Part shown: positions 1 through 64,000 of the stretch, in pieces | How positions within the stretch are numbered: the first letter of the stretch is position 1 | Layout of the letters: each line of letters starts with the position of its first letter | Origin: an uncultured Verrucomicrobiae bacterium | GTDB taxonomy: Bacteria > Verrucomicrobiota > Verrucomicrobiia > Chthoniobacterales > Chthoniobacteraceae | Assembly (NCBI GenBank): GCA_963767975.1 | Contig: CAVYGI010000001.1 | Location: 19,044-83,043 of the forward strand | Direction of reading: 5' to 3' | Length of the DNA stretch: 64,000 nucleotides | Position numbers and translations under genes: made by a program | The notes under the pieces: model-generated | Database searches by the model: none | The model's input: the letters and a program-made list of their open reading frames with translations, nothing else | What the model was told of the DNA's origin: nothing

Positions 1-1380
1 AGTTCCGTCGCTTGCACTGATCGTCTCCACTTTCGCGGAGAGAAAATCGCGCTCTTCGTCGATTACGCGCACCTCTGCAGAAACTCCGCCGGTCCATCTG
101 AAGCCACTCCAATTCAACACAAACTCCGAACGCGCATCGCCGAAGTTGCTCACGAGAATCGAGGCCTCGCGCCCGTCCGTGGTTAATCCCGCGGCCACCG
201 CCAATTTCCCCGCGACCGAACCGCCCGCCTCGACGCGCCGTGGTGTGTCGAGCAGGCCACGAAACGCACGCATGGCCTGCCACGCTTTTTGCGGAACGCC
301 TTGATCGGAAAAGAGTCCGAAGCCGCCGACTTCACCGTGGTAGAAATTGCCCACATCGATCGGTGTGTTCTGAAGTTCGATCAGCGAAGTCGCGATGAAC
401 GCGGCCCCCCGCGCTCCGGCCATCTTGTCGTAGGCGCGCGTCCGCGCTTCGGCAGGAGCACCGCGCGAGAGCGGCTTCCAGGAATTTCCGGGGAGAAAAT
501 TCCACTCGTTCAGGTGACTCTCCGTCTCATCGAATCCGCGCGCATCCAGTAGCCGCCGGATCGCTCGTCCGCGCGCGACCAGCTCCGCCGGATCATCGGT
601 GTAACAGTGCCAGGAAAAGAAATTCAGCGGCACATTTTCCTTCCGACACATCGTGAGGAAAGCCGATGCAAAGTCGGTCGGCTGAAATTCACCGTTCACG
701 AAATTGCCGCTCGCGCCGAGTGCCGGGCCACCCACCTTCACTGCGGGAAAGGCTGCTTTGATGGCCTTCGCCGCGGTGCGGTACAGCCGCAGATAATCTT
801 CGTCCGTGCCGCTCCACATCGCCGGCCGATTTTCCGGCTCATTCCAGATTTCCCAATAGCGAATGCCGTAGTGAAAGCCTCCAGCCCAGCCCTCGTTGTA
901 ATGGCGGATGATGCCGAGGCAGATTGCCGCCCATTTTTCCGGGTCCGCAGGAGGATGCGCGAAGCGCCGCACGCTGGTGTGTTCGATGCTTTCGCCGAGC
1001 CGGTAAATCGGCTCCGCTCCGGTGGCTCGGACCGCCGCGATGTATTCGTCGGTGAGGCGGAAATCGTAGCTCGCAGGCAGCGCGGGATCGGCGTCGGGAT
1101 TAGGGAAAACGGCGTGATGATCGACAACGTAGGGATTGGGCCAGCCGCAGTCGTGGAGCCGTGTGAAAGGGATCTTCAATTCCCTCTGCGCCTCGGTGAC
1201 CTCGAACATTCCGCCCGGCGCCAACGGCCCTTTGTTGACGCCATGGAGCGCCCGAATGCGTCCCGCGGGCACAGAAAAGTCCACGCTCAGCACCGCGTTT
1301 TCGCCCCGTGCGAACCGCCCGGGAATCAACATTGAGCAGCCGAGGAAAATCAAGACGGCGGAAGCATGGGTGGGTTTCAT
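1..1380 (-). CDS. Secreted clan GH-A glycoside hydrolase (GH39-like); C-terminus lies beyond the window start
   Basis: Own minus-strand translation from ATG at 1380 (MKPTHASAVLIFLGCSMLIPG...). It stays open to position 1, so it is absent from the ORF track. Contains YWEIWNEPE (clan A acid/base-type motif) and later ESHLNEWNF (candidate nucleophile Glu). Confidence 0.7.
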   Translation of the reverse strand, partial: MKPTHASAVLIFLGCSMLIPGRFARGENAVLSVDFSVPAGRIRALHGVNKGPLAPGGMFEVTEAQRELKIPFTRLHDCGWPNPYVVDHHAVFPNPDADPALPASYDFRLTDEYIAAVRATGAEPIYRLGESIEHTSVRRFAHPPADPEKWAAICLGIIRHYNEGWAGGFHYGIRYWEIWNEPENRPAMWSGTDEDYLRLYRTAAKAIKAAFPAVKVGGPALGASGNFVNGEFQPTDFASAFLTMCRKENVPLNFFSWHCYTDDPAELVARGRAIRRLLDARGFDETESHLNEWNFLPGNSWKPLSRGAPAEARTRAYDKMAGARGAAFIATSLIELQNTPIDVGNFYHGEVGGFGLFSDQGVPQKAWQAMRAFRGLLDTPRRVEAGGSVAGKLAVAAGLTTDGREASILVSNFGDARSEFVLNWSGFRWTGGVSAEVRVIDEERDFLSAKVETISASDGT

Positions 1381-1435
1381 CTTCGAGAATCAAATTTGAG
1401 CTTCGTGCTCTCGCGGCCGCGGACTCGTCGCTCTC

Positions 1436-3045
1436 CTACTTCGATAGACGGACCGGTCCGGTGTTGGGCTGCGGGGCGCCAGGACTGCTGCGTCCATCGG
1501 CGGCATATTTATCCAGCAGCGAACGGAGATGAGCCACGACCTCAGGATGCTCGGCCTGCACGTTGTGCATTTCGCCGATGTCATGAGCCAGGTCGTAGAG
1601 TTGGACGAGTGGCAGACTCGTGGATGCGGGGCTGCCAGGCAGCGGCGCGCTCCAGCCGCCTGAGTCCGGGCAAAGCGCGAGCTTCCAAATCCCCTGCCGG
1701 ATGGCGAAGGAGCCGTTGATGGAATGATGCACGACGGCCTCGCGCAGCGGTGCGGTGGCGCGACTCTCCGAGCGCCGGCAGCAGGCTCACGCTGTCTTCC
1801 GCCGGCAGTAGTCCGGAAGCTTCTCGCCGAGAATGTCCGCGCAGGTGGCGAAAAGGTCGTTGAGGCAAATCAGTTGGTCGCTCGTCGCTGCCGGGCTTCA
1901 CTCGACCCGGCCAGCGCGACGAGGAATGGCACGCGATGTCCGCCGTCGAAAATGTCGGCCTTCGTGCCCGCGAAACTGCGCGACTCGGGTTGTGGCCCTT
2001 CGCCAGCAGCTCGTCGAAGTTCGCCTGCGGTGAGCAGCCGTTGTCGCTCGTGAAAATGATCGAGCGTGTTCGTCGGCAAGGCCGTCTGCTCGAGCGCTGC
2101 CAGCACGGCTGCCGAGCGTCGCGTCGGTCTGCATCACGAAGTCGGCGTACGGATTCAACCCGCTTTTTCCCTGCCCATTCCGGCGTCGGCACGATTGGCG
2201 TGTGCGGCGCATTCAGCGGCAGGTAGAGAAAGAATGGCTTGCCGCTCGCGCGCGGCGGCGCGCGCGTTCGCCGATGATGTCCACCGCCTGTCGCGTGAGC
2301 GCGGGCAGCACATCCACGGCCTCGAAGTCCGCGGCCGCCGGGCCTTTGCGCGTCGCTCCGCCGGTCCGTCCGGCCATCATCGGAAATGCTTTGTCCACCG
2401 TGGGCACGGAGGTCACCCGGTCGTTCTCGATGAATGTATACGGCACCATGTCGAGCGACGCCGCGATGCCGAAGTAGTAGTCAAAGCCCAGCGCTGTTCG
2501 GCCCGTTGCGAGATCGGCTTTTCGAAGTCGCGCGCCAGCCGTCGGCCCCTTTTTCGATATGGTCGTTGAACGGAGGCGCGTCCGGCTTTCATCGGCCAAT
2601 TCATCCCGAGATGCCACTTGCCCGACCGCCGCGGTGTAAGTATCCGTGCCGACGCAAAAATGCTGGAACAGTCAGTCGGCCGGTCTCGATCAGCGGCGGA
2701 CTCATGCCGCCGAGGACGCCGCTCTTCAGCCGGGAACGCCAGTTGTAGCGGCCGGTGAGAATGCCGTAGCGCGTCGGCGAGCAGACCGCGGAGCTCGAGT
2801 GCGCGTCGGTGAAAATCATCCCCTCCACGCGCGAGACGATCGGCGTGCGGAGTCGCGATTTTTCCCTCGGGATTGAGGCACTTCACATCGCCGTAACCGA
2901 GGTCGTCGCAGAGGATGTAGACGATGTTTGGCTTGTCGCCCGCGCGTGCGGAATCGCGGCACGAAAGGAGGCTCAAAACGACGCAAAATGGGAGGAGTTG
3001 TTTCACGTGAAAAAGGAGGCTAAGGCGCCGCGGCACTGGATTCAT
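1436..3045 (-). pseudogene. Sulfatase (formylglycine-dependent), multiply frameshifted
   Basis: Sulfatase segments are spread over several minus frames. KPNIVYILCDDLGYGDV is in ORF 2413-3195. CSPTRYGILTGRY (C-x-P-x-R signature) is in ORF 2601-2828. DYYFGIAASLDMVPY is in ORF 2213-2617. The C-terminal LYDLAHDIGEMHNVQAEHPEVV is in ORF 1436-1732. Start taken at ATG 3045 (MNPVPRRLSLLF, signal-like). Confidence 0.75.
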
Positions 3046-3191
3046 CAGCGCTCGGCTTTGGCGCGCACGGGCGCAGTTGCGTCGTTGGCCCGGGCCCGTT
3101 CCGCGGCGAGCAACGCTTTCTCTGCAGCGCCTGCGCTGGAGAAGGCCAGCGCGAGGAGGCGGAGCAAGCGTTTCATGAAGAGATGCTCCAA

Positions 3192-4652
3192 TCACTGATC
3201 CTGCTGCGTTGTGCCGATACCGAATTGCTTTTCGTAGCGGACCTTGAAGGGATTTACGTCCGGCCCCTGCGCGTCTTCATTGACCAGCGCTGGCTGCACG
3301 TCGTCCCACCATTGGTCGTAGGCCGCACGCAATTCCGCCAACGCATCCGGATGCTCGGCTGCGACATTTTTCGCCTGCCCCGGATCGATCGTGAGGTCGT
3401 AGAGTTCCGCGTTGTTCACGAGCGAAAAGCGAGCATTGCGGATGGAGCAGTGCGCATATTTTGCCTTTGCGACATCTCCCCGCGGCCATCGGCCCACGTG
3501 AGTCACCAGCGTGCGATCTGACCACGCGGCATTCGGCGCAGACTCCGATTGACCCGCAGGTTTCAGAAGCGGCAAAAGACTCCGCCCCTCGACCTGTCCC
3601 CGGACGTTGGGGCTCAAAGCCACTCCGGTGATGTCCGCGAGCGTCGGGAAAATATCGACGTGTGCGGTCAGCGCCGTGATGTCCGTGCCACCTTTCCACC
3701 CCGCTGGCCAACGCCAGAAAGCCGGCACCCGCGTGCCCCCCTCGTACGGCGTCGCCTTCCGCCCGCGCATCCCCGCATTGAAGACTTTCCATCCGGTTGC
3801 CGAGCCATTGTCGGTCATGAAAATGACCAGCGTGTTCTCCGCGATCCCCCACTCGTCGAGCTTCTCGAGCATCCGCCCGAAGTTCTCATCGATGTTCGTG
3901 ATCATTCCGTAGAACTTCGCAACTGCCTCCGGTACTTTCCCGGCATACATCGCCTCATAGCGCGGGGCGATCACGAGAGGTTCATGCGGTGCGTTCGGCG
4001 TGAGGTAGGTGAAAAAGGGCGTCCCCTTGTCCAGCTTCTCATCCATCCATTCGATCGCGCGGGAGAAGAAGATGTCCGTGCAATAACCCTCGGTTTTCTC
4101 AAACACCCCGTTGTGCAGAATCGCCGGATTGAAATAGCGGTTCCCCGGCGCATCGCCGCACGAGCCCGGATAGCTCTGCCCGATCCCGCCTGCGCCGTGG
4201 ATGAAAGTCTCCTCAAAGCCGCGCTTCTCCGGCTGATACGCCGCTTCGTCGCCGAGGTGCCATTTGCCGAAAATCCCCGTTGCGTAGCCGGCCTCTTGCA
4301 ACACCTGCGCGAGGGTCGTCGCCGAGAGCGTCATCCGCTCGCGCTCATTGATCGTGTGCGTCACGCCGTTCTTGAATTCATGCCGCCCGGTCATCAGCGC
4401 GGAGCGCGTCGGCGCGCACGTCGGGCTAACATGAAAATTCGTGAACCGTCGGCTCTCCGCGTGAAAACGATCCAGGTTCGGCGTGCGGATGATCTCGTTG
4501 CCGAGGCAGCCAACATCGCCGTATCCTTGGTCATCCGTCATCACGAGGATGATGTTCGGTCGCCGTGTCTTCGGCTCATCCGCAGCCCTGACTGGGGCTT
4601 CGAAGAAGCCGTGAAAAAGGGTCGCGAGGACAAGGAAAAGAGGGGTCTTCAT
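3192..4652 (-). CDS. Sulfatase (arylsulfatase A family), secreted
   Basis: Intact 486-aa ORF with a signal peptide, RPNIILVMTDDQGYGDVG and the CAPTRSALMTGRH formylglycine signature. Confidence 0.9.
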   Translation of the reverse strand: MKTPLFLVLATLFHGFFEAPVRAADEPKTRRPNIILVMTDDQGYGDVGCLGNEIIRTPNLDRFHAESRRFTNFHVSPTCAPTRSALMTGRHEFKNGVTHTINERERMTLSATTLAQVLQEAGYATGIFGKWHLGDEAAYQPEKRGFEETFIHGAGGIGQSYPGSCGDAPGNRYFNPAILHNGVFEKTEGYCTDIFFSRAIEWMDEKLDKGTPFFTYLTPNAPHEPLVIAPRYEAMYAGKVPEAVAKFYGMITNIDENFGRMLEKLDEWGIAENTLVIFMTDNGSATGWKVFNAGMRGRKATPYEGGTRVPAFWRWPAGWKGGTDITALTAHVDIFPTLADITGVALSPNVRGQVEGRSLLPLLKPAGQSESAPNAAWSDRTLVTHVGRWPRGDVAKAKYAHCSIRNARFSLVNNAELYDLTIDPGQAKNVAAEHPDALAELRAAYDQWWDDVQPALVNEDAQGPDVNPFKVRYEKQFGIGTTQQDQ

Positions 4653-13363: not shown

Positions 13364-14386
13364 ATGACACGTCGAACCGTGCGTTCTCGCGATCGAGACC
13401 TCGTGCGACGAAACGGCGGTCGCGATTCTGCGCGGCGAGGAACTTGCTCTGCGAGCGAGGTCGCGTCGCAGATCGCGATCCATGCAGAGCGACCGGCGGC
13501 GTCGTGCCCGAAGTCGCCTCGCGCAATCATCTGCGCGCGCTGCAAGCCGTGGTCGGCACACGCGCTGGCCGATCGGCCGGGTTTCGAGCATCGAGCGACA
13601 TCGACGCCTTCGCCGCGACGTGCGGACCGGGGCTGGCGACGTTCGCTGATGATCGGCACCTCCGCGGCCAAGGGGCTCGCCGTCGCGCGGCGCAAACCTT
13701 ACCTCGCGATCAACCATCTCGAAGGTCACCTGCTCTCGCCGTTTTTCGGAGCGCCGGTGGGGTGCGCCCGGCGGTCGCGCTCGTCGTCAGCGGCGGTCAC
13801 ACCTTGCTCGTGGAGATCGCAGTCCTTCGGAAAATATCGGCTGCTCGGACAGACGCAGGACGACGCGGCCGGCGAGGCGTTCGACAAAGTCGGCAAGCTG
13901 CTCGGCCTGCCCTATCCCGGCGGGCCGAATGTCAATCGCCTCGCCAACGAGGGAAATCCGGCGCGCATTGATTTTCCGCGCAGCATGCTCGATTCCGGCG
14001 ACTTCGATTTCAGCTTCAGCGGACTGAAGACCGCGGTGCGCTACCTGCTTCCAAAGCTCGGCGAATATCAGCCTTCCCGACGTGTGCGCATCGTTTCAGG
14101 AAGCCGTCGTCGATGTGCTCGTCGCGAAAACGATGCGCGCCGCGAAAGACGACCGGGCACCGGGTTGTCGCGGTCAGCGGCGGTGTGAGTTGCAATACGC
14201 GGCTGCGCGAAAAATTGCGCGCAGCCTGTGCCCGCGGGCGGACTCGAACTGCTGCTCGCCGAGCCCACACTCTGCACGGATAATGCCGCGATGATCGGCT
14301 ACGTCGCGGCGCTGAAAGTGGCTCGCGGGGAGTCGTCTTCGCTGACCGCGGACATCGATCCGAATCTCCGCTTGGTGGCTTTATAA
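13364..14386 (+). pseudogene. tsaD: tRNA N6-adenosine threonylcarbamoyltransferase TsaD, at least six frame switches
   Basis: Fragments lie in different frames. They include LAIETSCDETAVAILRG, GGVVPEVASRNHLRAL, AAKGLAVARRKPYLAINHLEGHLLSPF, VALVVSGGHTLLVEI, LLGQTQDDAAGEAFDKVGKLLGLPYPGGP, FSFSGLKTAV and SFQEAVVDVLVAKT. The end ...DPNLRLVAL* finishes at TAA 14384-14386. Confidence 0.8.
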
Positions 14387-14457
14387 AGCGGCGCAAAGCG
14401 CTGCAATTCAACATTTCGGCTGTCGCCATTTCGCATTGTAAGCCGTAGATTTTGAGG

Positions 14458-32956: not shown

Positions 32957-33781
32957 TCAGCGTTTGACGCCGATCATTTCGCGCAACTCCTCCGGCGTAC
33001 CCGGGCGGCGCAGCATCGCGACAAGGTATGCGTCTTTGCCGAGATTCGCGGCGGTCGCGAGACGCTCGGGATGCTCGAGGCGCGAGAAGACCACGCGCTT
33101 GATTTTGCTCGAAGGGACCGAGCGCTCTCCGTAGCCGCCCGGTTTGTTCGACGACCAAAATTGAATCGTCTCGACTCCCGCCGGTGTGCGCGTGCGACCG
33201 AGGTAGATGACCGAGTGGCCGAACTCGCGGGAACCGATTTCGTCACTCCAAAAGATCTTCATGAAATCGCCCGGACGCGCGTCGTCGAACGACAGAAAGT
33301 TACGCCCAAGACCCAACTCGAAAAAAAGCCGCGCCGTTCCGGGACCATTCGCATTCCAACGTCCCCACATGCCGACGCCATCGGCCTGCCCGCGAATCGG
33401 CAGCGCTGCGAGCGCGCTCGGCGAGAGGCGCAGACGGCCCTCGTCGATCATTTTTTGCACAACCGACAGGAACACGAGATAGGTCGCGCCCGAGCAGAAA
33501 CTCGGCGTCGCCGCAGCGGGTTCAACCGTCAGCCCGGAGGCATCGGAAGCTGTCGCCTGACGCAGCTTGTCCATCGCCCGCGAAGTCGTCTCGTAGCCGC
33601 CGCCGACGGGCATTTTGCCGAGCGCGGCGAGCACCAGATCATTGCACGATTTCGCGACCGGCGTGGCCAGCATCACGCGCGGCTCGGCCACCTCGGGAGT
33701 CTGCGCGCTCAATGGTGCAGCGCAAAAAAAGAGCACGGCAAAGCATTGCGGAGGGGAAAAGGAGGAATGCGTTTTAGCCAT
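32957..33781 (-). CDS. Secreted protein with NlpC/P60-like Cys/His motifs
   Basis: ORF 32957-33862, with ATG at 33781 (MAKTHSSFSPPQCFAVLFFCAAPLSA). SFCSGATYLVF resembles the D-C-S-G nucleophile motif. RPGDFMKIFW...FGHSVIYLG resembles the PGDL..F...HVGIY His motif. Confidence 0.45.
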   Translation of the reverse strand: MAKTHSSFSPPQCFAVLFFCAAPLSAQTPEVAEPRVMLATPVAKSCNDLVLAALGKMPVGGGYETTSRAMDKLRQATASDASGLTVEPAAATPSFCSGATYLVFLSVVQKMIDEGRLRLSPSALAALPIRGQADGVGMWGRWNANGPGTARLFFELGLGRNFLSFDDARPGDFMKIFWSDEIGSREFGHSVIYLGRTRTPAGVETIQFWSSNKPGGYGERSVPSSKIKRVVFSRLEHPERLATAANLGKDAYLVAMLRRPGTPEELREMIGVKR

Positions 33782-34529
33782 GACAACGAGGATGTGATTG
33801 AGAGCATACACCCCTGCGAAAAAGAGCCTCCAGAGAACTGTGGCCATCCTTGCCCGCGTCAAAAGTCACATCTCTGGTGAGAGCTTCTGGAAGTTGGGCG
33901 CGTTGGTGGAGGCGTTGACCACCAGTCACGATGTCTCGCGGAGTTTTGCGATGGCGCTCGCAAGCTCTTATGCGAGAAGCTCATGAAGTGATGCGGGTTC
34001 ATTGCGGGCTTGCCATCGGCTACTACGGTGAACGTCCACTACCTGCCTCCGTTGATGTCAGGGTCGGCTAGCAAACGGTCGAAAAAAATCCTGTGTGCGT
34101 ATCTCCGGCGTGTGGTCAGCATCGGAGGCATTTTCGTCCTGACCTGCTGGCGCAATTTTGCGGTATTCAGCGCCCGTCGCCGCGCGCAGACTGCCCGCGT
34201 CCGAGACCATGTTGATGAACATGATGTCGGCTTCACGGTCTCGAAATGTCATCGCGTCGCCATAGCGAAGGCGGATGAGCGCCGCGCCAATCGGGAAACG
34301 AATAGAAGGCTTGGTCCGCACTCCATTCATCGCCGCGCAGACCGTGGGATTTCATGGCGATATCGGAGCTTGGCGATCTCTACTTGCGATCTTTCCGAGC
34401 TTGAATCTGCCAGAAAACGCCGATGGCCGTTCCGATCACTCCATTCGCTGAAGTGGTTACTGGCACAATTTTGAGCGCGTTAGTCCCGGCGCTGATCATC
34501 TCACGATTCGTGGGAATCTTCGAAAGGAT

Positions 34530-35182: not shown

Positions 35183-35256
35183 TGCATCCGGCGGGGGTCG
35201 AACCCACAACCTCTGCCTTCGGAGGGCAGCGCTCTATCCAGTTGAGCTACGGGTGC
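35183..35256 (-). tRNA. tRNA-Arg (anticodon CCG), one acceptor-stem mismatch
   Basis: The reverse complement folds as GCACCCG/TA/GCTC-AACTGGATA-GAGC/G/CTGCC-CTCCGAA-GGCAG/AGGTT/GTGGG-TTCGACC-CCCGC/CGGATGC/A. Pair 4:69 is C-A. Confidence 0.8.
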
Positions 35257-52026: not shown

Positions 52027-53332
52027 ATGGTCGCCAATCACGAGCCGCTCATGCAGGGTGCCCCGATGACCTCGTCCGGTCCATCGACTAGGCTCGCATC
52101 GGGGGGTCTGGAGAAAACGGGACGCAAGCCGACGCTGCTGATCGTGGACGACGAAGAGGGACCGCGGCAATCGCTCCGGATCGTTTTTAAGAATGACTAT
52201 GAAGTGCTCGTCGCCAGCAACGGCGAAGACGGGATCGCCATCGCGATGGAACATCCGGTCGATGTCGCGGTCCTCGATATTTTGATGCAGGGCATGTCCG
52301 GCGTCGATCTCCTCCGCGCCCTCAAAGACCTCGACCCGCACATTGAGGTCGTGATGCTCACGGCCTACGAGACTGTGGAGACAGCGCGGCGCGCCCTTCG
52401 CCTCGGCGCGAGCGATTACCTGAACAAGCCCTTCGATATTCCCACGATGCGCGCGGCGGTCGGCCGGGCCTCGCGGAAACGCCAGGCCTCGATCGAACTT
52501 CACGGCACGCACGATCGGCTCGAAGCGTTGCAACACGAGATTCAGGTCCAGCGCGTTCAAGAGGAACTCACCCGCGCCAAAGGCGAGATTTACGCCAGCG
52601 TCCTTCACGACATCAATAGCCCGCTCACCATCATTTCCGGCTTCATCGAGATGATCAATCGCTCGATGCAGGACGCCGCCAGCGTGGAAGGCGAGCAGCT
52701 CGAAACAATCAAAGGCGACCTCAAACAACTGCACGGGCAAGTGGCACGCTGCTTCGAAATTTCCCGGCGTTACCTCAGCTTCCTCAGCGCTGGGCATGCC
52801 GGAAAGAACGGTCGTCGGGGTGCAGCAGATCCTCATCGACGTGAAGGATCTTTTACTGCGCCATCCCAGCGCCTGCGGCCACGAATTGACCGTCGATGCG
52901 CTCGAGTCCGACGTGATCGCGGAGATCAATGGCACCGATCTGCTGCAGATCTTGTTGAACCTCACGATCAACGCGCTGCAGTGCACCGATGCTCCGCATT
53001 CCGTCCGCATCCTCGCGGAGCCTCGACACGAACCGCTCGATCTCAGCGCCTTTCGCGACGGACCGCAGGAGCGCTTCATCAACCGCGAGGGTTTTCTCAA
53101 TCGCGGTCCCCTTTTGGCCATTAGCATCGCCGACGATGGACCCGGGATTGCGCCGGAAGTCGTCGCGAAAATGTTCGACGAGAACATCACGACCAAAGCG
53201 CCCGGACGCGGCACCGGGCTTGGGCTTTCCATCGTGCGGCGACTCTTGAGAGAAGCCAACGCCGCCGTGCATTTGCGGACGGAAATCACCCGCGGCTCGA
53301 CCTTCACGCTCTACCTCCAGATTCGCCAGTAG
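52027..53332 (+). pseudogene. Hybrid response-regulator/histidine kinase, one frameshift near 52790
   Basis: Receiver part: LLIVDDEEGPRQ...VAVLDILMQGMSG...MLTAY...NKPF. H-box: LHDINSPLTII, in ORF 52027-53124. The HATPase part (LLNLTINALQC, DDGPGI, GTGLGLSIV) is in ORF 52796-53332. Confidence 0.8.
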
Positions 53333-54926: not shown

Positions 54927-55000
54927 CGGGCTGTGGCTCAGCTTGGTAGAGCGCCTCGTTCGGGTCGAGGAGGTCCAGGGTTCGAATCCCTGCAGCCCGA
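54927..55000 (+). tRNA. tRNA-Pro (anticodon CGG)
   Basis: Hand fold: CGGGCTG/TG/GCTC-AGCTTGGTA-GAGC/G/CCTCG-TTCGGGT-CGAGG/AGGTC/CAGGG-TTCGAAT-CCCTG/CAGCCCG/A. The acceptor stem is perfect and the C1:G72 pair is typical of tRNA-Pro. Confidence 0.9.
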
Positions 55001-55166
55001 CTCTCCCCAAACTCACTGGATGAGCTGCGAAAATAGTTCTCTTCCTTGAAACTGTGTTTCTGCTCCTCGGAGCTACGGACCTAACGACAGAATTTGACCT
55101 TTGAAGCTTCGGGCGATCTCGCTGATTGGGGGCGACAGCTTCAAACGCAGGCACGGAAACTGGCCG

Positions 55167-57486
<2,320 letters not shown>

Positions 57487-57521
57487 TTCATCTGACTCCG
57501 CCCCTTCTTCAGCAAACAGAA

Positions 57522-58844
57522 TTACAACGCGGTGATAGCCACAGTTGCCGACGCCCACGAATTGCGCGGAATGCTGTGCGAAATTGTAGTCTGCGGAACC
57601 GCAACACAACGATTTGCTGGGTCTGGAATCCAGTAGATAACGTTTGCTGTCGTCGGGTTGAAATTCTCCAAGACAGCCAAGACATAGCTATTCGAGTGAA
57701 GGCTCGCTTGTTGCCACTCACGATTGGTCAACGACGGCGAACACAGCCCAAGCGAGCTTTTCACTTCGACGTATCGTTTCCTGGAACCTTTTTGAGCGAA
57801 GATGTCATAACCGAGTTGTTGGCGGGAAACGACATAAGCCAGCCACCCATCCGAAATCAAAGCGGACGCAACAAACTGTTCAGCCTCCCAACCCGTGTTG
57901 ATTGCCGGAGGCGGCGTTGGCGTGCCTGATAGAACAGGGGAAGTTGGAATAGTTGTTGTCCGCGGACGGCGTGCTGACGTTCGCTGCGCTATTGTCGGGG
58001 GCACCGGCAACTGTGACGGCAGTTGCGCTCCCAGCGATGCACTTGCCGGCCAACTAGAAGACTGCGTTAGCCGCGCGTTGAGAGGATGCTGGATTGAATC
58101 ATCGAAGAACGCCGAGAATTCTGGCTGCGAAAAATTAAAATCAGCCATGAAGTCGGCCAGTCGCACGCTAGTTCGTGTCCCGAGCACCAGCCCAGGGTCC
58201 GCATCGTGATAAAGCGCGACGATCAGCGGTAAGATGGGAATTCTAACCTGCGACGGGGCTACGTATGGCTCAAAGTTTGATATGTTCTGGAGATCGGTTA
58301 CGGCGTATCCACTTCCGCCCGGATCGATTCGCAACCACTTCCTGTGACTCTCACCTCGGTAGCCAGCGCCGGAGGGACAAAGCGAACATCGTGCGTCAAT
58401 CAGTGTTCCCGCAACCGGAGTCTGCAAGTGGCGACACTGGCTTCGGTCTTGGTTTAAGAAAGTTGGACTGGAGAGGTCTGCTGGTGGTGCGTAGCAGCCG
58501 ATTCCTTTTTGAAGATTGAAATTGTTCCGCCAAGTATTCTGCGCTCCCGAGTTGCCCGGCCCAACCAAGCCGGTCCTTGCAAGGAAATTCCCTTCAAAAA
58601 GAGACAGAACACACTGGTTCGGCGGGCGCGACAACTTTGCATACAAATCATCAAGGAGCGCCTGAAGAACTTCAGTCGTGATGAACGATCCTGCATACAT
58701 ACTCGGCAGACTGTTTTGGAAGAACTTCAGGCCAAGGAAAATTTGGATGAAGCGACCCTTAAATGCTTGTCCAATAGTTTGCTTGTGTGCCCTCAAACAT
58801 CCGAGAGCGTCTTGAAACAACGTTGGATCGCTGACCGGTATCAT
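57522..58844 (-). CDS. Uncharacterised protein: N-terminal Cys-cluster domain, Pro/Thr-rich linker, C-terminal PD-(D/E)XK-like (DUF3883-like) domain; candidate restriction endonuclease
   Basis: Intact 440-aa ORF. Four Cys lie within aa 117-156 (GIGCY...SQCRH...ARCSLCPSG). The linker covers aa ~262-317 (PSQLPVPPTIAQRTSARRPRTTTIPTSPVLSGTPTPPP). The C-terminus has GYDIFAQKGSRKRYVEVKSS...LTNREW...YVLAVL, a D...E-x-K nuclease pattern. The region is AT-richer than its flanks. Confidence 0.6.
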   Translation of the reverse strand: MIPVSDPTLFQDALGCLRAHKQTIGQAFKGRFIQIFLGLKFFQNSLPSMYAGSFITTEVLQALLDDLYAKLSRPPNQCVLSLFEGNFLARTGLVGPGNSGAQNTWRNNFNLQKGIGCYAPPADLSSPTFLNQDRSQCRHLQTPVAGTLIDARCSLCPSGAGYRGESHRKWLRIDPGGSGYAVTDLQNISNFEPYVAPSQVRIPILPLIVALYHDADPGLVLGTRTSVRLADFMADFNFSQPEFSAFFDDSIQHPLNARLTQSSSWPASASLGAQLPSQLPVPPTIAQRTSARRPRTTTIPTSPVLSGTPTPPPAINTGWEAEQFVASALISDGWLAYVVSRQQLGYDIFAQKGSRKRYVEVKSSLGLCSPSLTNREWQQASLHSNSYVLAVLENFNPTTANVIYWIPDPANRCVAVPQTTISHSIPRNSWASATVAITAL

Positions 58845-58850
58845 CGGGAC

Positions 58851-61739
58851 CTAAACTCTGCCCACGAAGGAGCGAAGATACTCTCCTGAGGATATTTCAC
58901 CGCGCATGAGCTGTTGAAACGGATTTTGCGGCGGAGACGCATATCCTTTGTGGGAGCCGTTTTCCCCGGGCCTCAATGAAGGAAGGTCAGACAGAGCATC
59001 CTCCACGGAAACAGCTTTCGTGACATGTCCGAAGAGCGAAGGCTCTTGTTCCATGCCAGTGATCGCCGCTGGCGGGGAGACATTCCACCCTGCTGGTAAA
59101 CTCACCATAATAAGGCGCTTTCGGCGCTGCGGCACGGCGTATCGTTCGGCATTCAGAACCCAAGGGACGAGGGGGTTGTCGAGAATCTGCAACTCACGTC
59201 GAATCATCTCGAAGACCGAACCGCCTTCCATGTTGAGCAACCCTGTCACGTTCTCGAAAACGAAGCCATCCGGGCGGATGGTTTCCACCAACGCCTTGAA
59301 CTCCTTGAACAGATGGTTGCGCTCGTCGCCAAGCGATCGGCAGTTGCCCGCGGTGGAAAACCCCTGACACGGTGGGCCGCCGATGACGAGCAGCGGCACA
59401 CCATCGCGGCGCTCGCGGGTGATGATTTCCACGAGGCGGCGGAAAATATGCGGCTCGCGAATGTCACCCGTGACCGCGACGGGATGAACGTTGCGTCGGT
59501 AGCTTTCGAGGAAATCGTTCTCAATGTCGTTTGCCACGATGGGTTCCCAACCTGCCCATCGGAAGCCCAGCGAGAGGCCGCCGGCTCCGCTGAACAAATC
59601 CACGTATTGCCCGACCACGGGCAAAGTGCGCGCGATTTGAAACGCCAGCAGCGGCGGCACTGCATTCCCGATTTGTTTCTGCACCGAGAGATGAGCGCCG
59701 ACAAAAGCAAATCGGTCGGGGAATGACTGGAGCCGTGCGGCCTCGCGCTCGGAAAGAACGCGGTGTTGCCCTCCCGCGTAGTCGTAGTGCAAGTGGCAGC
59801 CGTTACCGGGGCGGTTGAAGTAGGTGTTGATCGTGTAGGCAGGACGCGCGGGGTGCAGGCGGCCGTAATAAGTCGAACGGCTGCCTTCGCCAGCGGCAAA
59901 GCTGACCCGGATTTGCTCTAGGCGCTTCGATGGCACCTCGTGCGGGATATTCTTCCAGTTGCCGCCCGGCGGCACGGCAATGGCAACGTCTAGGTCGAGC
60001 TTGCTGAGTTTCGCTGAGTAGTGATTTGGGATTCTCGCCTCCATCCCGTGAAGTGCGGGTTGGGTTGTCTCGCAACTTCCATTGTCAGCGGAGACAACAT
60101 CCTGAGCGTCGGAATCGACGTCGAAAAGTCTCAGCATTTCGGCGCGGAAATTCTCCGGCAACCGGTCAAAGAATCCGAGTTGCATGATGAACTCCTCACG
60201 CGTCAGGCCGTAGGCGCGCGCGACCGCCACCTCGACCGCCGCTTCCGCCCCCGCTTCGCCGTCCAACACACGCCGGGTCAACGCAGAAAGCGTGCGCACC
60301 GTGCGAGCATCGTCGAACCGTGGCACGCGCACCTCTCGCACGCTGCCGAGCGAGACGTGTCCAGTGCCGAGCTTGGAGCGGAGCTGAAACTCAAATGGGA
60401 GTGAATTGATGATGCCAAGCAGCGCGTGAAGCTTGTCCATGTCGCCGTCTTTGAAATACCCGACGTGCAAAGAATTCCCGGTGACGCAGCCCGCGGGCAG
60501 CAATGTGGCGATCATCCGGCGCACTTGCGAGCGACGCGAAACGTCGCGCCATGTCAGCCGTGCATGAGCAGCGGAGATGGGCAGTGCGCGGCTCGCATCG
60601 CTCACAAACTCTGTGAACGGATTGAGCACTCCATAACGCGACACTGCGCGCCCCTTCACAAATGGAATCGTGCCCGTAGCGGCGGTGAACCGCCGGTAGC
60701 CCGTCTCATCCCACTCACGCCCGAGCCAGAGCGCATCCGGTTCGTCGCCGCAGAGGTCATCGAGGCGCGGGAGCGGAGACAGGCGGAGAAGGAAACGCAT
60801 TTCGTCCGCCGCGAGGTCGAGCGGAACGGCGTAGCCAAGCCGTTCCAACTCGGATCGGCTCAACTCAAGCCGACTTTCGCCAATCAATCTGCGCTCTGCA
60901 TCGAAGCGCGAAAGCAGCGGTGCAAATTCGGCATCGGGGGTGCGCTCGAAAATCGCGGCGGCACACGTTTGATCGACACCGTCAAAAAGCCGCGCCTCAG
61001 CCGGGTAAGCGAGTAGCCGCCGAAGTGCGGCGTCGTGAAGCAACCACCGGCGGAATCGGGCGCTTACTTGATCGCTGAACAACGAGCTTGGGAGAATGAT
61101 GCCGCACCATCCGCCGGGGCGGAGGAGGCGGATCGAAAGTTCGAGGCCGCATCGGGAGAGATTCGTTCCCCAACCGGAAAACTTTTTCTCCGGCTGCGAC
61201 TGGGGCAGCAGCCGAGCGAGCCGCTCATCGTAATCTCGCAGCGCGGCGACATAGGCAGCGCGTGCTTCTGGCGCGAGTTGCTCGATCTCCCGCCGGTCGG
61301 GCTTGAGTGCCTCCCACGGCGGATTGGTCAGCAACAGATCATACTCACCAGCTCCATCGCGGAGAAAAGTGTCTCCGCTCTCGGCTTCAATCTCCACGCG
61401 CAATTGCAGCTTTTGCGCGCAAGCCGCGACGAGTTCCCGCGCCAACGCCACAGCCTCTGCATCGTTGTCCCAAAGTGAAATGTGAAAGCACGCACCGGCG
61501 AATTTCGGCGAAGAGGCCGAAGCATGGAGAAACGCAACGATCAATCGGCCGTCGCCGCAGAAGGGATCGACGACTCGAACCTCGCGCCCGGCCATTGACG
61601 GGACGTCGTCGAGCAACACCTCACCGATTCGCTCCGCGAGAAACTCCGGCGTGTAAAAACGTCCGTTCGCGCGAGCAATAAGGGCTTTTCCACCCACCCG
61701 CATCTGAGCGTGGGCTGAGAGATGTTCGTTATGCTGCAT
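58851..61739 (-). CDS. Fused DNA methyltransferase: N-terminal gamma-class N6-adenine MTase plus C-terminal circularly permuted C5-cytosine MTase
   Basis: Intact 962-aa ORF. m6A part: FYTPEFLA, VVDPFCGDGR (motif I, 61568-61548) and LLLTNPPW (motif IV, 61328-61314). m5C part: ARLQSFPDRF...QIGNAVPP (motifs IX-X, 59675-59652) lies before VDLFSGAGG (motif I, 59603-59577). Then GGPPCQGFS (motif IV, 59381-59355), FENV and PQRRKRLIMV (motif VIII). Confidence 0.85.
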   Translation of the reverse strand: MQHNEHLSAHAQMRVGGKALIARANGRFYTPEFLAERIGEVLLDDVPSMAGREVRVVDPFCGDGRLIVAFLHASASSPKFAGACFHISLWDNDAEAVALARELVAACAQKLQLRVEIEAESGDTFLRDGAGEYDLLLTNPPWEALKPDRREIEQLAPEARAAYVAALRDYDERLARLLPQSQPEKKFSGWGTNLSRCGLELSIRLLRPGGWCGIILPSSLFSDQVSARFRRWLLHDAALRRLLAYPAEARLFDGVDQTCAAAIFERTPDAEFAPLLSRFDAERRLIGESRLELSRSELERLGYAVPLDLAADEMRFLLRLSPLPRLDDLCGDEPDALWLGREWDETGYRRFTAATGTIPFVKGRAVSRYGVLNPFTEFVSDASRALPISAAHARLTWRDVSRRSQVRRMIATLLPAGCVTGNSLHVGYFKDGDMDKLHALLGIINSLPFEFQLRSKLGTGHVSLGSVREVRVPRFDDARTVRTLSALTRRVLDGEAGAEAAVEVAVARAYGLTREEFIMQLGFFDRLPENFRAEMLRLFDVDSDAQDVVSADNGSCETTQPALHGMEARIPNHYSAKLSKLDLDVAIAVPPGGNWKNIPHEVPSKRLEQIRVSFAAGEGSRSTYYGRLHPARPAYTINTYFNRPGNGCHLHYDYAGGQHRVLSEREAARLQSFPDRFAFVGAHLSVQKQIGNAVPPLLAFQIARTLPVVGQYVDLFSGAGGLSLGFRWAGWEPIVANDIENDFLESYRRNVHPVAVTGDIREPHIFRRLVEIITRERRDGVPLLVIGGPPCQGFSTAGNCRSLGDERNHLFKEFKALVETIRPDGFVFENVTGLLNMEGGSVFEMIRRELQILDNPLVPWVLNAERYAVPQRRKRLIMVSLPAGWNVSPPAAITGMEQEPSLFGHVTKAVSVEDALSDLPSLRPGENGSHKGYASPPQNPFQQLMRGEISSGEYLRSFVGRV

Positions 61740-61745
61740 GCGTGT

Positions 61746-63021
61746 TCAGTCTGCCGACTTAAAGGATTTAAAACAAGTTGAGCAGGTTAATTGATGAGGG
61801 CCTGCCGGATTTTGCCCCTCGCCGCCGGAGCCGCTGCTCATGGAGCCATTGGCGAGGAGGAGCCCCATGCTGCCCTGCGGGGCGAGGTGATGGAGCATGT
61901 GCTGGATCCAGGCGAAGTTCGCGTTGCCCCGTCTGCTCGCCCGTTTACCAGCCGCCGCTATTCCCCTCCGCCTCCTCGGCGGGGTGCCGTAGCGCCAGCG
62001 CGGGTCGCCCTCCAGCTTCGCGTCCCACCATTCGCTGATGTTGAACGGCGGATTGGCCATCACGTAGTCGGCGCGCAGGTCGGGGTGCTGGTCGCTGGTG
62101 AAGGAGTTGGCCGGTTCCTTGCCGAAATTGAAGTCGATGCCGCGGATGGCCATGTTCATCGCGGCGAGGCGCCAGGTGGTGGGATTGCTCTCCTGCCCAT
62201 AGACGGAGAGGTTGCCCAGCTTGCCGCCGTGCTCTTCGATGAAGCGCTCGCTCTGGACGAAGAATCCGCCGGAGCCCATGGCGGGATCGTAAACGCGCCC
62301 CTGGTAGGGCTCGAGCATCTCGACGATGAGCGAGACGATGGATTTCGGCGTGAAATACTGGCCACCCTTTTTCCCCTCCGCGAGGGCGAACTGGCCGAGG
62401 AAGTATTCGTAAACGTGGCCGAGGATGTCCTTCGCGTGCAGGTCGGCGTGCTCGAAGGGGATGGTGGCGATGAGGTCGATGAGGCTGCTGAGATTCGCCG
62501 GGTCGAGCTGGAGCTGGGTGTAGGTCTTGTTGAGGACGCCCTTGAGCTTCGGGTTCTCCTTCTCGACGGCATCGAGCGCGTCGTCGATGAGCTTGCCGGT
62601 GGAGGTGATCTTGTAGGTGGTGGTCTTGCCGTTCTTGACCGTGATCTCGGAGCCGGGCGGGAGCTTGGCGCTGTCCTGCAGCGTCTTCCACCGGGCGAGC
62701 GCGGGCACCCAGAAGACGTTCTTCTCGATGTAGTAGTCGCGCTCTTCCAGCTCGGCGCGGATGGCTTCGAGGTATTCGGCGCTGCCTTCGCCGCCGTAGT
62801 CGGCGGGATCGAGGAAGTAGTCGCTCTTCGGATCGCGAAGCTGGGCCTCGATCTCCCGCTGCCGCAGTGGCGAAGGAGTCGGAGACGTATTTGAGGAAGA
62901 TCAGGCCGAGGACGGCGTGCTTATAGACGGCGGCGTCGAGATTGGCGCGGAGCCGGTCGGCGGCGGACCAGAGCTTCTTGTCGAGGTCGCGGAGGAACTG
63001 CTGGGAGGTCTGCTCAGCCAT
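61746..63021 (-). pseudogene. hsdM: Type I restriction-modification M subunit remnant: frameshifted and 3'-truncated
   Basis: ATG at 63021 ([50 protein letters not shown]). A frame change follows. ORF 61746-62708 has [26 protein letters not shown] and GNANFAWIQHML...LLLANGSMSS. Homology (GKIRQALIN in a shifted frame) stops near 61790, where roughly the last fifth of HsdM should follow. No hsdS is present downstream. Confidence 0.8.
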
Positions 63022-63188
63022 CGGTGAGCATTCATTGCCGGAAGCAATACGCATTAGGCGAGCCGGTTTTCATGCAGAGCGGCTCGGCTAGCCGCCATCT
63101 CTAACCCTCCAAATCCCAGACCCGGCTATGCAATTCGACCGCGTTTGGGGGGCGCCCTTGTCAGAGGGCGCGACAGGCCACGGGCCTC

Positions 63189-63491
63189 TTACTTGCCGCC
63201 CTTCGCAGTTGTGAGCGCAATAAGGTCACTCGCAGGGATGTCGGCTAATGTCTCAAGGGAGAGCTCCAGCACTCGGGTGAACAGGAGCAGCTCGTAATCA
63301 GTGATGCAGCGGCGCCGCAGTTCGATTTTCGTGATGACAGTTCGCTCCACGTCCCAGCCAAGCAGTTGCAGTTTCCGCGCGACATCCGCCTGCGACCACC
63401 CCTTTGCCTCGCGAATCTGCCGGAGCATGACGCCAAGCATGTTTCGCTGCGGTGGGATTTTGGTTCGCGTCGGACGTGCCACTTTTGGCAC
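63189..63491 (-). CDS. XRE-family helix-turn-helix transcriptional regulator
   Basis: 100-aa ORF. LGVMLRQIREAKGWSQADVARKLQLLGWDVERTVITKIELRRR is a canonical Cro/C1 HTH. Confidence 0.8.
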   Translation of the reverse strand: MPKVARPTRTKIPPQRNMLGVMLRQIREAKGWSQADVARKLQLLGWDVERTVITKIELRRRCITDYELLLFTRVLELSLETLADIPASDLIALTTAKGGK

Positions 63492-63579: not shown

Positions 63580-64000
63580 ATGTCGCCGGCGAACCTTCCC
63601 CCTGTCCTAAACAACGACGAGGCCCGTCTGCTGCGGTGTTTCCATCTCCTTTCAGGGGATGAAAAAGATCGGCTCTTGGTGGCGGCTGGCAGGAGCGCCA
63701 TTGCCGCATGTGATGCCGAAGTGCGGAAGGCATTGGCCAAAGCAAAATCGGCCCAAGAGCGTGCCGAGTCAGACGCCGAACGGCAGAAGGCGATTGATGA
63801 AGCCGAATGGGCCCTCTCGGAGGCGTATGATGATTTCTACTGTTGTCATCTACCCTCCTTGAGCTTCCCGACGTGGGCGTCGCTGATGATTGATTTCCTC
63901 GGCAGCGGTGGGCTGTGCGAGGCGATCCGCGAACACTTCGATGGGTGCTTGGGCGACGCTCTTCTGGGGTCTGTTGCATCGGTCGAGGGATTCGCACTGC
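63580..64000 (+). CDS. Hypothetical protein, partial (continues past the window end)
   Basis: Own translation from ATG 63580: MSPANLPPVLNNDEARLLRCFHLLSGDEKDRLLVAAGRSAIAACDAEVRKALAKAKSAQERAE... It is open to 64000 and not in the ORF track. It is divergent from the XRE gene. Confidence 0.45.
   Translation, partial: MSPANLPPVLNNDEARLLRCFHLLSGDEKDRLLVAAGRSAIAACDAEVRKALAKAKSAQERAESDAERQKAIDEAEWALSEAYDDFYCCHLPSLSFPTWASLMIDFLGSGGLCEAIREHFDGCLGDALLGSVASVEGFAL

Follow-up and report, generated by a model that had tools for sequence, protein, structure and literature searches.

A two-gene cassette of a fused adenine/cytosine methyltransferase and a DUF3883 nuclease in a Verrucomicrobial genome: a probable type IIS-like restriction-modification system

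Introduction

Two neighbouring genes lie between the remnants of a type I restriction-modification (R-M) system in a 64,000-nucleotide stretch of contig CAVYGI010000001.1 from an uncultured Verrucomicrobiae bacterium, the whole stretch being referred to here as the window. One of them encodes a 962-residue protein in which an adenine and a cytosine DNA methyltransferase are joined, and the other a 440-residue protein ending in a nuclease-like domain, while the nuclease that is canonical for methyltransferases of this type is absent from the window. The locus raises the question of whether the two genes form a working R-M system and, if they do, which part of it finds the target and which part cuts the DNA.

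The explanation favoured here, with a probability of about 0.75, is that the pair makes up a working R-M cassette of type II, with type IIS-like features, whose two genes were transferred together into a defunct type I R-M locus by a tRNA-Pro gene. In such a system the 962-residue enzyme would protect the host by methylating both strands of an asymmetric site, its gamma-class module of the Alw26I/Esp3I type forming N6-methyladenine (m6A) on one strand and its permuted C5 module forming 5-methylcytosine (m5C) on the other. The 440-residue protein would be the cognate endonuclease, its N-terminal domain binding the DNA and reading the site when unmethylated, and its Hjc-like PD-(D/E)XK domain, held on a flexible tether of 40-60 residues, cutting nearby, outside the site. 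The catalytic domains of FokI and Hjc act paired, and by analogy to these enzymes a double-strand break would most likely need the pairing of two catalytic domains. The canonical HNH nuclease of this methyltransferase family would have been replaced by an unrelated nuclease family.

The 440-residue nuclease

The only Pfam match of the 440-residue protein was NOV_C/DUF3883 (PF13020) at residues 325-398, with E 4.4e-10 and 39.9 bits against a cutoff of 22.1. This domain has been placed in the PD-(D/E)XK superfamily (PMC3424549) and in YenY4I, an active enzyme, was shown experimentally to carry out catalysis (PMC6765204). The AlphaFold2 (AF2) model contained an N-terminal domain, a disordered stretch (residues 273-317) and a small alpha/beta C-terminal domain, in agreement with the type IIS-like architecture of a domain, a flexible linker and a small PD-(D/E)XK part that had been proposed in an earlier note on this DNA. 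For the C-terminal domain the best Foldseek matches were the archaeal Hjc resolvases 1ob8, 1gef and 2wcw (probability 1.0), and SPARDA nuclease domains and splicing endonucleases were found as well, all of them PD-(D/E)XK folds. The linker varies from 39 to 61 residues among homologues, and the majority-residue fraction falls to 0.37 within it, compared to 0.72 in both domains.

Residue conservation was counted over 32 diverse homologues with identities of 53-95%. D347 and K362 were present in all 32, position 360 was occupied by E in 26 and by D in 6, and of the further conserved residues E322 was retained in 31/32 and Q379 and E393 in 32/32. The window protein keeps all 76 family-invariant columns, and an intact copy from another genome shares 95% identity with it. 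The earlier note had staked the nuclease assignment on the constancy of D347, E360 and K362, which holds with the single E/D exchange at position 360, and on there being no characterised non-nuclease homologues. None was found among more than 234 full-length homologues, the names of which are all hypothetical, DUF3883 or NO VEIN; the PDB sequence search gave a chance match only (E 0.39), the NCBIfam and PHROGs scans gave no match, and PADLOC matched the C-termini of TmtA only, with no restriction-enzyme model.

The fused methyltransferase

The 962-residue protein is a bifunctional m6A and m5C methyltransferase, which was recognised by TIGR00675 with 151.7 bits and by the PADLOC model MTase_II PDLC03237 over residues 17-882. 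Every methyltransferase motif quoted in the earlier note, together with D347, E360 and K362 of the nuclease, was found at its expected place (Table 1). The m5C part was matched to DNMT1 and to HaeIII in two pieces that break collinearity, residues 590-706 corresponding to the C-terminal motifs (IX-X) and residues 711-948 to the N-terminal motifs (I-VIII). Because motif X precedes motif I, a point that the earlier note had not made, the m5C module is circularly permuted, an arrangement listed only for M.BssHII and the group of Alw26I, Eco31I, Esp3I, BsaI, BsmAI, BsmBI, BcoDI and EcoMI, the permuted m5C enzymes named being M.Alw26I, M.Esp3I, M2.Eco31I and M2.BsaI (PMC5944983). The link to Alw26I and Esp3I suggested earlier is borne out by this permutation and by the end-to-end TIGR02987 match of the m6A module, which scores just below the cutoff, and judged by sequence the methyltransferases are probable members of the Alw26I/Eco31I/Esp3I family in the ordinary annotation sense.

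The fusion of the two activities, to which the earlier note had given weight, is real, but it is lineage-specific: it was found only in the window and in three Verrucomicrobial loci, and the other homologous loci, which are the majority, carry the m6A and m5C enzymes as two separate genes.

Conservation of the operon

A scan of one genome per GTDB species yielded 23 loci with the nuclease, two of which lacked upstream information, leaving 21 that were informative. The hosts belong to the Verrucomicrobiota, Acidobacteriota, Pseudomonadota, Planctomycetota, Cyanobacteria and Ratteibacteria, with one Thermoplasmata archaeon. A homologous m5C gene was directly upstream on the same strand in 19/21 loci, as would be expected from the association that the earlier note had proposed to look for across genomes, and a methyltransferase occurred within 8 kb in 20/21. 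The order m6A, m5C, nuclease was kept in 15/15 loci with full upstream sequence; four further loci were cut by contig ends and still had the m5C gene directly upstream. The distances from stop to start codon ranged from -86 to +66 nucleotides, the two codons often overlapping. Between pairs of loci, divergence of the nuclease was correlated with the divergence of each of the two methyltransferases (Mantel r 0.66-0.67, p <= 2e-4).

The earlier note had described the nucleases of the Alw26I family as HNH enzymes and had set the 440-residue protein apart from them, which proved correct. The canonical HNH nuclease (TIGR02986) was absent by tblastn from the window and from 22/23 close-family loci. 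The exception, a Blastocatellia metagenome-assembled genome (MAG) (locus L017, 7983-14752), holds a DUF3883 homologue 2.5 kb from a complete canonical Alw26I-family system, in which the nuclease, m5C and m6A proteins all exceed the NCBIfam cutoffs (504.5 bits for the HNH nuclease and 422.7 bits for the m6A enzyme), and a gene for an EndoIII-like DNA glycosylase lies between the homologue and the canonical system. Here one methyltransferase pair may serve both of the unrelated nucleases, or the locus may be partway through nuclease replacement. A recognition domain shared between the 440-residue protein and the canonical HNH nuclease was considered and rejected, as hhalign against the TIGR02986 member of L017 gave a probability of 0.15%.

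Among the remaining loci, one carries a degraded copy (L021). A copy was also found on the 14.6-kb plasmid pTT14-9 of Roseomonas mucosa (L034, CP099480.1), with the system at 1-4102 and 14125-14436. The nuclease gene of this plasmid stands behind the cytosine methyltransferase gene and spans the origin of the record, where the annotation shows no more of it than a short fragment named 'DUF3883 domain-containing protein'. Just upstream of the methyltransferases is a Vsr gene with an annotation of its own. No phage record with the system was found.

The N-terminal domain and its other fusions

When modelled alone by AF2, the N-terminal domain reached a pLDDT (predicted local distance difference test) of 94.4 and a pTM (predicted template modelling score) of 0.92. 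Foldseek gave no fold match for it in the PDB (best E 3.5) or in BFVD (best E 1.9), and no Pfam, NCBIfam or PHROG model matched it. A HMMER pass with residues 1-272 against 1.84 billion representatives returned 75 matches, most of them in proteins of about 420-450 residues like that of the window. Among the distant relatives, P0175 (548 residues) ends in HNH_2, and P0174, P0182, P0190 and P0193 (630-668 residues) carry a McrB-type AAA_5 domain. With hhalign, the window domain was aligned to the distant relatives over its whole length with probabilities of 97-98% and E values from 1e-11 to 5e-14, and the signatures NxWRN...Q.G.GC...C.H and RIP..PL.VALY are retained in them. The four residues C117, C137, H139 and C153 persist as far as the distant relatives with HNH and McrB-like domains, which suggests that they may form a structural zinc site.

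The neighbours of these relatives are again methyltransferases. In P0175 an m5C methyltransferase, 43% identical to that of the window and collinear with it, ends 1 nucleotide before the HNH fusion, and an m6A-like gene follows. P0174 is encoded in the order m6A, m5C, N-domain-McrB and DUF2357 + PDDEXK_7 (McrC-like), while in P0182 a fused m6A+m5C methyltransferase of 1067 residues is followed by the N-domain-McrB protein and a McrC-like protein. P0193 has an m5C gene upstream and a McrC-like gene downstream, P0190 a beta-class N6_N4 methyltransferase upstream and McrC downstream, P0177 a 1070-residue methyltransferase upstream, and P0173 an N6_N4 methyltransferase upstream with a Dam-like enzyme nearby.

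These fusions point to a portable module that would behave as a recognition module. Because it is paired with unrelated classes of methyltransferase, the N-terminal domain probably reads DNA rather than docking on a given methyltransferase. A precedent is offered by LlaJI, whose asymmetric site is protected by a pair of m5C methyltransferases and is recognised, when unmethylated, by the N-terminal half of R1, a McrB-like protein, as the sole determinant of specificity (PMC1459862). Methyltransferase-associated McrBC branches are also mentioned in a census of McrBC systems, which defers their description (PMC11090510).

The recognition site

The variable segment of the m5C module, which contains the target recognition domain (TRD), aligns without gaps to its counterpart in the canonical system of L017 at 74% identity, as against only 55% in the catalytic core. 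Because of this likeness of the TRD, and because both nucleases coexist in L017, the site probably has a GTCTC-related core. CGTCTC and GGTCTC were not depleted in the window, and a literature search for a methylome motif from a host of this nuclease family gave nothing usable.

Carried further, the same observations would make the N-terminal 265 residues a new portable recognition fold that has been plugged into three engines (a PD-(D/E)XK domain of the Hjc kind on a tether, an HNH domain, and a GTPase and nuclease pair like McrBC) and is locked to Alw26I-type m6A/m5C methyltransferases. The window protein would then be a type IIS enzyme that reads a GTCTC-type core as the Golden Gate enzymes BsaI and BsmBI do, being unrelated to them and probably cutting with a different geometry. 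It is tempting to speculate along these lines, although the odds of the proposal as a whole are put at somewhat short of even.

Alternative explanations

Several observations weigh against a functional type IIS-like cassette. The m6A module of the window scored 335.6 bits with TIGR02987 over profile positions 2-518 of 523, which is just below the cutoff of 353.5; the m6A partners of the same nuclease family in ten other genomes scored 320-416 bits, 7/10 being above it. Most of the loci are MAGs, and their gene contexts depend on the assemblies. Avoidance of GTCTC/GAGAC in the window was not notable (observed/expected 0.83, z -2.7, rank 39 of 512), a count that is uninformative at 64 kb. P0186, the weakest match of the N-terminal domain (E 1e-4), is the only one without a methyltransferase and has an HTH (helix-turn-helix) neighbour only. 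Most of what is known of DUF3883 nucleases and McrB fusions comes from modification-dependent enzymes (PMC6765204). In an Isosphaeraceae MAG (L020, 8001-9320) an intact homologue of 49% identity has an SMC-like gene on one side and type III res and mod genes on the other, with no Alw26I-type methyltransferase within 8 kb; a classical restriction enzyme would not be expected to stand alone in this way, and a protecting methyltransferase may be encoded elsewhere in that genome. Lastly, no DNA-binding fold can be recognised in the N-terminal domain, and its median pI of 8.4 makes it no more than mildly basic.

This last property, together with the correlated divergence of the nuclease and the methyltransferases and with the position of the nuclease gene, which in the operons always follows the m5C gene, often with overlapping stop and start codons, would suit an R-M system in which the N-terminal domain docks on the methyltransferase and the latter supplies target recognition, as when the type III Res subunit binds Mod or the type I HsdR subunit binds the M2S core. 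Docking is nevertheless improbable, as the domain is found with a beta-class N6_N4_Mtase (P0190) and with N6_N4 and Dam-like enzymes (P0173), the corresponding position in McrB-like proteins is that of a DNA-binding specificity domain (PMC1459862), and the L017 gene lies outside the methyltransferase operon. It is decidedly unlikely that the 440-residue protein is a modification-dependent (type IV) or independent defence nuclease travelling with a methyltransferase whose marks it ignores. DUF3883 is catalytic in YenY4I and McaZI, some such enzymes adjoining m5C methyltransferases (PMC6765204), and the McrB-like fusions of the N-terminal domain, the restriction of PADLOC matches to TmtA C-termini and the solitary L020 copy all fit such a role. 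A loosely associated nuclease would not account for the fixed gene order and near-zero spacing in 19/21 loci across phyla or for the same methyltransferase pair accompanying the domain through three effector architectures; no PUA, SRA, DUF3427 or YTH-type reader was detected in the 440-residue protein by Pfam or by fold comparison with the PDB, and LlaJI is a precedent for a methyltransferase-linked McrB-like enzyme that cuts unmethylated DNA (PMC1459862).

Decay of the cassette, leaving either an inactive relic or an orphan methyltransferase beside a decaying gene, is suggested by the truncated and frameshifted hsdM and hsdR, by the degraded L021 copy and by the failure to find a sigma-70-like promoter for the cassette, where terminator-like hairpins were also weak only. 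Both reading frames of the cassette are nevertheless full length, all methyltransferase motifs and the invariant nuclease columns are kept, and the nuclease is 95% identical to an intact copy, so that a relic is very unlikely. Least probable of all is a repair nuclease tied to the deamination of m5C in the manner of Vsr: although m5C methyltransferases often travel with mismatch-repair nucleases and the small PD-(D/E)XK domain is similar to Hjc and other structure-specific nucleases, the 440-residue protein gave no Vsr family match in Pfam or NCBIfam, a Vsr gene and an EndoIII-like glycosylase gene exist separately on the Roseomonas plasmid and in L017, respectively, and the presumed recognition domain occurs in addition as a fusion with HNH and McrBC-type restriction engines. 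The functional type IIS-like cassette is the explanation retained in what follows.

Organisation of the locus

The coordinates of the features are collected in Table 1. The description in the earlier note of two intact co-directional genes separated by 6 nucleotides, with gaps of 6 and 35 nucleotides to the hsdM and hsdR remnants, was exact. The spacer between the two full-length open reading frames (ORFs) reads GTCCCG, the methyltransferase gene is 6 nucleotides from the end of the hsdM-remnant ORF at 61746, and the 35-nucleotide gap separates the nuclease gene from the hsdR remnant, counted at the first ATG of the latter (MSTDHP..., 57486). The hsdM-like reading stops near 61790 and the hsdR-like reading starts near 57490. 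No convincing direct or inverted repeats or transposon ends were found to bound the cassette.

Table 1. Features of the cassette and its surroundings (positions in the window)
Feature	Residues	Position	Strand	Basis
Methyltransferase ORF	962 in all	58851-61739	-	ORF list; TIGR02987 and TIGR00675 matches
m6A module, Alw26I/Eco31I/Esp3I type	24-537	60129..61670	-	TIGR02987
m6A motif I, DPFCGDG	58-64	61548-61568	-	
m6A motif IV, TNPPW	138-142	61314-61328	-	
m5C module, circularly permuted	~570-955	58875..60032	-	DNMT1/HaeIII alignments
m5C motif X, QIGNAVPP	689-696	59652-59675	-	
m5C motif I, DLFSGAGG	714-721	59577-59600	-	
m5C motif IV, GPPCQGFS	788-795	59355-59378	-	
m5C motif VI, ENV	829-831	59247-59255	-	
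Predicted restriction endonuclease ORF	440 in all	57522-58844	-	ORF list, homologue alignment, structure model
N-terminal domain, presumed target recognition	1-265	58050..58844	-	AF2 model
N-terminal signature NTWRNN		58521-58538	-	
N-terminal signature QKGIGC		58494-58511	-	
Pro/Ser/Thr-rich disordered linker	266-317	57894..58049	-	pLDDT <50 for residues 273-317
C-terminal PD-(D/E)XK domain (NOV_C/DUF3883)	318-440	57522..57893	-	Pfam, Foldseek
Conserved residue	E322	in 57876-57893	-	
Predicted catalytic residue	D347	in 57804-57812	-	
Predicted catalytic residues	E360, K362	in 57753-57770	-	
Conserved residue	E393		-	
Probable mobile cassette: methyltransferase gene, 6-nucleotide spacer, nuclease gene and ~50 nucleotides of upstream leader		57508..61790	-	blastn against L001; ends of the hsd readings
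hsdR remnant		55167..57490	-	TIGR00348 positions 343-672 of 674; T1RH-like_C, SWI2_SNF2
hsdM remnant, 3'-truncated, frameshifted		61790..63054	-	N6_Mtase profile positions 2-192 of 311
tRNA-Pro(CGG)		54927-55001	+	ARAGORN

The hsdR remnant lacks the N-terminal nuclease domain (about 340 profile positions) and has one frameshift near 57250, its motif I, GSGKS, being in a different frame from the rest, and no hsdS was found at the type I remnant locus by Pfam and NCBIfam profile scans. The frameshifts are weaker as evidence of decay, and were not used alone as proof of it, because frameshifting affects a gene beyond the island as well and assembly indels are possible; the truncations of hsdM and hsdR are robust irrespective of such indels. 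The gene concerned encodes a response regulator/histidine kinase (52027-53332, +) and is split into the overlapping ORFs 52027-53124 and 52796-53332, with the frameshift near 52.8-53.1 kb.

The tRNA-Pro(CGG) gene is 166 nucleotides from the 3' end of the hsdR remnant, and the type I remnant and the cassette look like parts of a tRNA-flanked island. No integrase was found in the window, beyond whose end at 64000 the island continues. A gene for a 100-residue XRE-type HTH protein (HTH_31/HTH_3; 63189-63491, -) lies immediately upstream of the hsdM remnant; the protein may have been the controller of the former type I system, or the gene may be a separate part of the island.

Composition and history of this copy

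The earlier note had called the cassette compositionally foreign on the basis of three G+C counts (52/100, 25/60 and 74/120), all of which are exact. The claim holds for the nuclease gene, with a GC of 0.53 and a GC3 (G+C at third codon positions) of 0.55, the lowest-GC 1.3-kb stretch in the window (0.3% of windows are equally low). It does not hold for the methyltransferase gene (GC 0.61, GC3 0.68), which is near the host genes (GC3 0.70-0.77), and the hsdR gene chosen for comparison is itself atypical. The hsdR and hsdM remnants (55167-57239 and 61746-63054) have a GC3 of 0.87-0.91, well above the host genes, and the type I system is therefore itself foreign. The island consists of at least three compositional layers, namely the type I remnant, the methyltransferase gene (0.68) and the nuclease gene (0.55). 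Elsewhere in the window a second low-GC patch was noticed at 33600-34400 (about 0.54 against a mean of 0.61), some 1 kb from tRNA-Arg(CCG) at 35183-35256, and it may be another foreign segment.

A stronger proof of the foreignness of the cassette, independent of composition, is the comparison with its closest relative, a locus in a Verrucomicrobiae MAG (L001). By blastn the DNA in common is confined to 57508-61733, which coincides with the two genes, and outside this interval the sequences are unrelated. DNA identity is 67-79% over the m6A half (61740-59950) and 82-95% over the m5C half with the nuclease gene (59950-57508). The identity jumps, from about 70-77% to about 90-95%, at the boundary of the m6A and m5C modules, near 59,900 (59,800-60,000), which indicates recombination within the cassette, inside the fused methyltransferase gene.

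Significance

The methyltransferase is of a known kind, and the nuclease family is uncharacterised and is not seen as a restriction enzyme by PGAP or PADLOC. The PGAP name is 'DUF3883/NO VEIN domain protein' and PADLOC has no restriction-enzyme model for the family, so that such loci are scored as orphan methyltransferases; this annotation gap affects more than 230 homologues over several bacterial phyla and one archaeal MAG (Thermoplasmata). In the literature searched there appears to be no description of an Alw26I-family system whose HNH nuclease was replaced, of the presumed recognition domain without structural relatives, or of the use of this domain with HNH and McrBC-like engines.

The locus would offer a clean natural case of a restriction nuclease swapped beside a conserved methyltransferase pair, and one recognition domain with three cleavage engines bears on the diversification of R-M systems. 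Being confidently modelled and without a solved structural relative, the presumed recognition domain is an attractive structural target, which could reveal a new mode of reading DNA sequence or methylation. If the site is GTCTC-related, the enzyme could become a new type IIS reagent beside BsaI and BsmBI.

Comparison with known systems

The earlier note had suggested that the pairing may be undescribed, and this stands in so far as the nuclease family is without characterised examples. It has to be narrowed, since a set of hidden Markov models derived from REBASE already contains a class 'pdexk-duf3883' of 7 proteins, given as 'presumed REases (PDDEXK, DUF3883); no characterized examples' (PMC10609329 supplement), which the window nuclease resembles in its DUF3883 domain and in the label of a presumed restriction endonuclease.

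The type IV enzymes YenY4I and McaZI (DUF3427-DUF3883) have a catalytic domain of the same family as the window nuclease. They cut modified DNA and use PUA or DUF3427 domains as readers of the modification, whereas the presumed reader of the window protein is a different, new domain, and its gene stands in an operon with methyltransferases. The likeness to LlaJI-type systems is through distant relatives only, in which the N-terminal domain is carried by McrB-like GTPases in operons of the order methyltransferase, McrB-like protein, DUF2357 + PDDEXK_7. Unlike LlaJI and McrBC, the window protein and its neighbours have neither a GTPase domain nor a McrC partner, and the nuclease is part of the same polypeptide as the presumed recognition domain.

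Type IIS enzymes of the FokI type share with the window nuclease the succession of an N-terminal recognition part, a linker and a C-terminal non-specific PD-(D/E)XK cleavage domain, as well as an asymmetric site, which for the window is implied by the two methyltransferase activities. The presumed recognition part of the window protein, however, has no similarity to theirs in sequence or fold, its linker is much longer and disordered (39-61 residues), and its cleavage domain is of the Hjc/DUF3883 kind.

The closest resemblance is that of the methyltransferase to the systems Alw26I and Esp3I (BsmAI/BsmBI) and Eco31I/BsaI, with which it has in common the same rare circular permutation of the m5C module and probably the m6A family TIGR02987. 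M.Alw26I and M.Esp3I are m6A-m5C fusions as in the window, while Eco31I and BsaI have split genes as do most of the homologous loci. The Alw26I, Eco31I and Esp3I systems cut with a TIGR02986 HNH nuclease, whereas the nuclease of the window, which gave no TIGR02986 match with hmmscan, is a PD-(D/E)XK enzyme by its fold and conserved residues.

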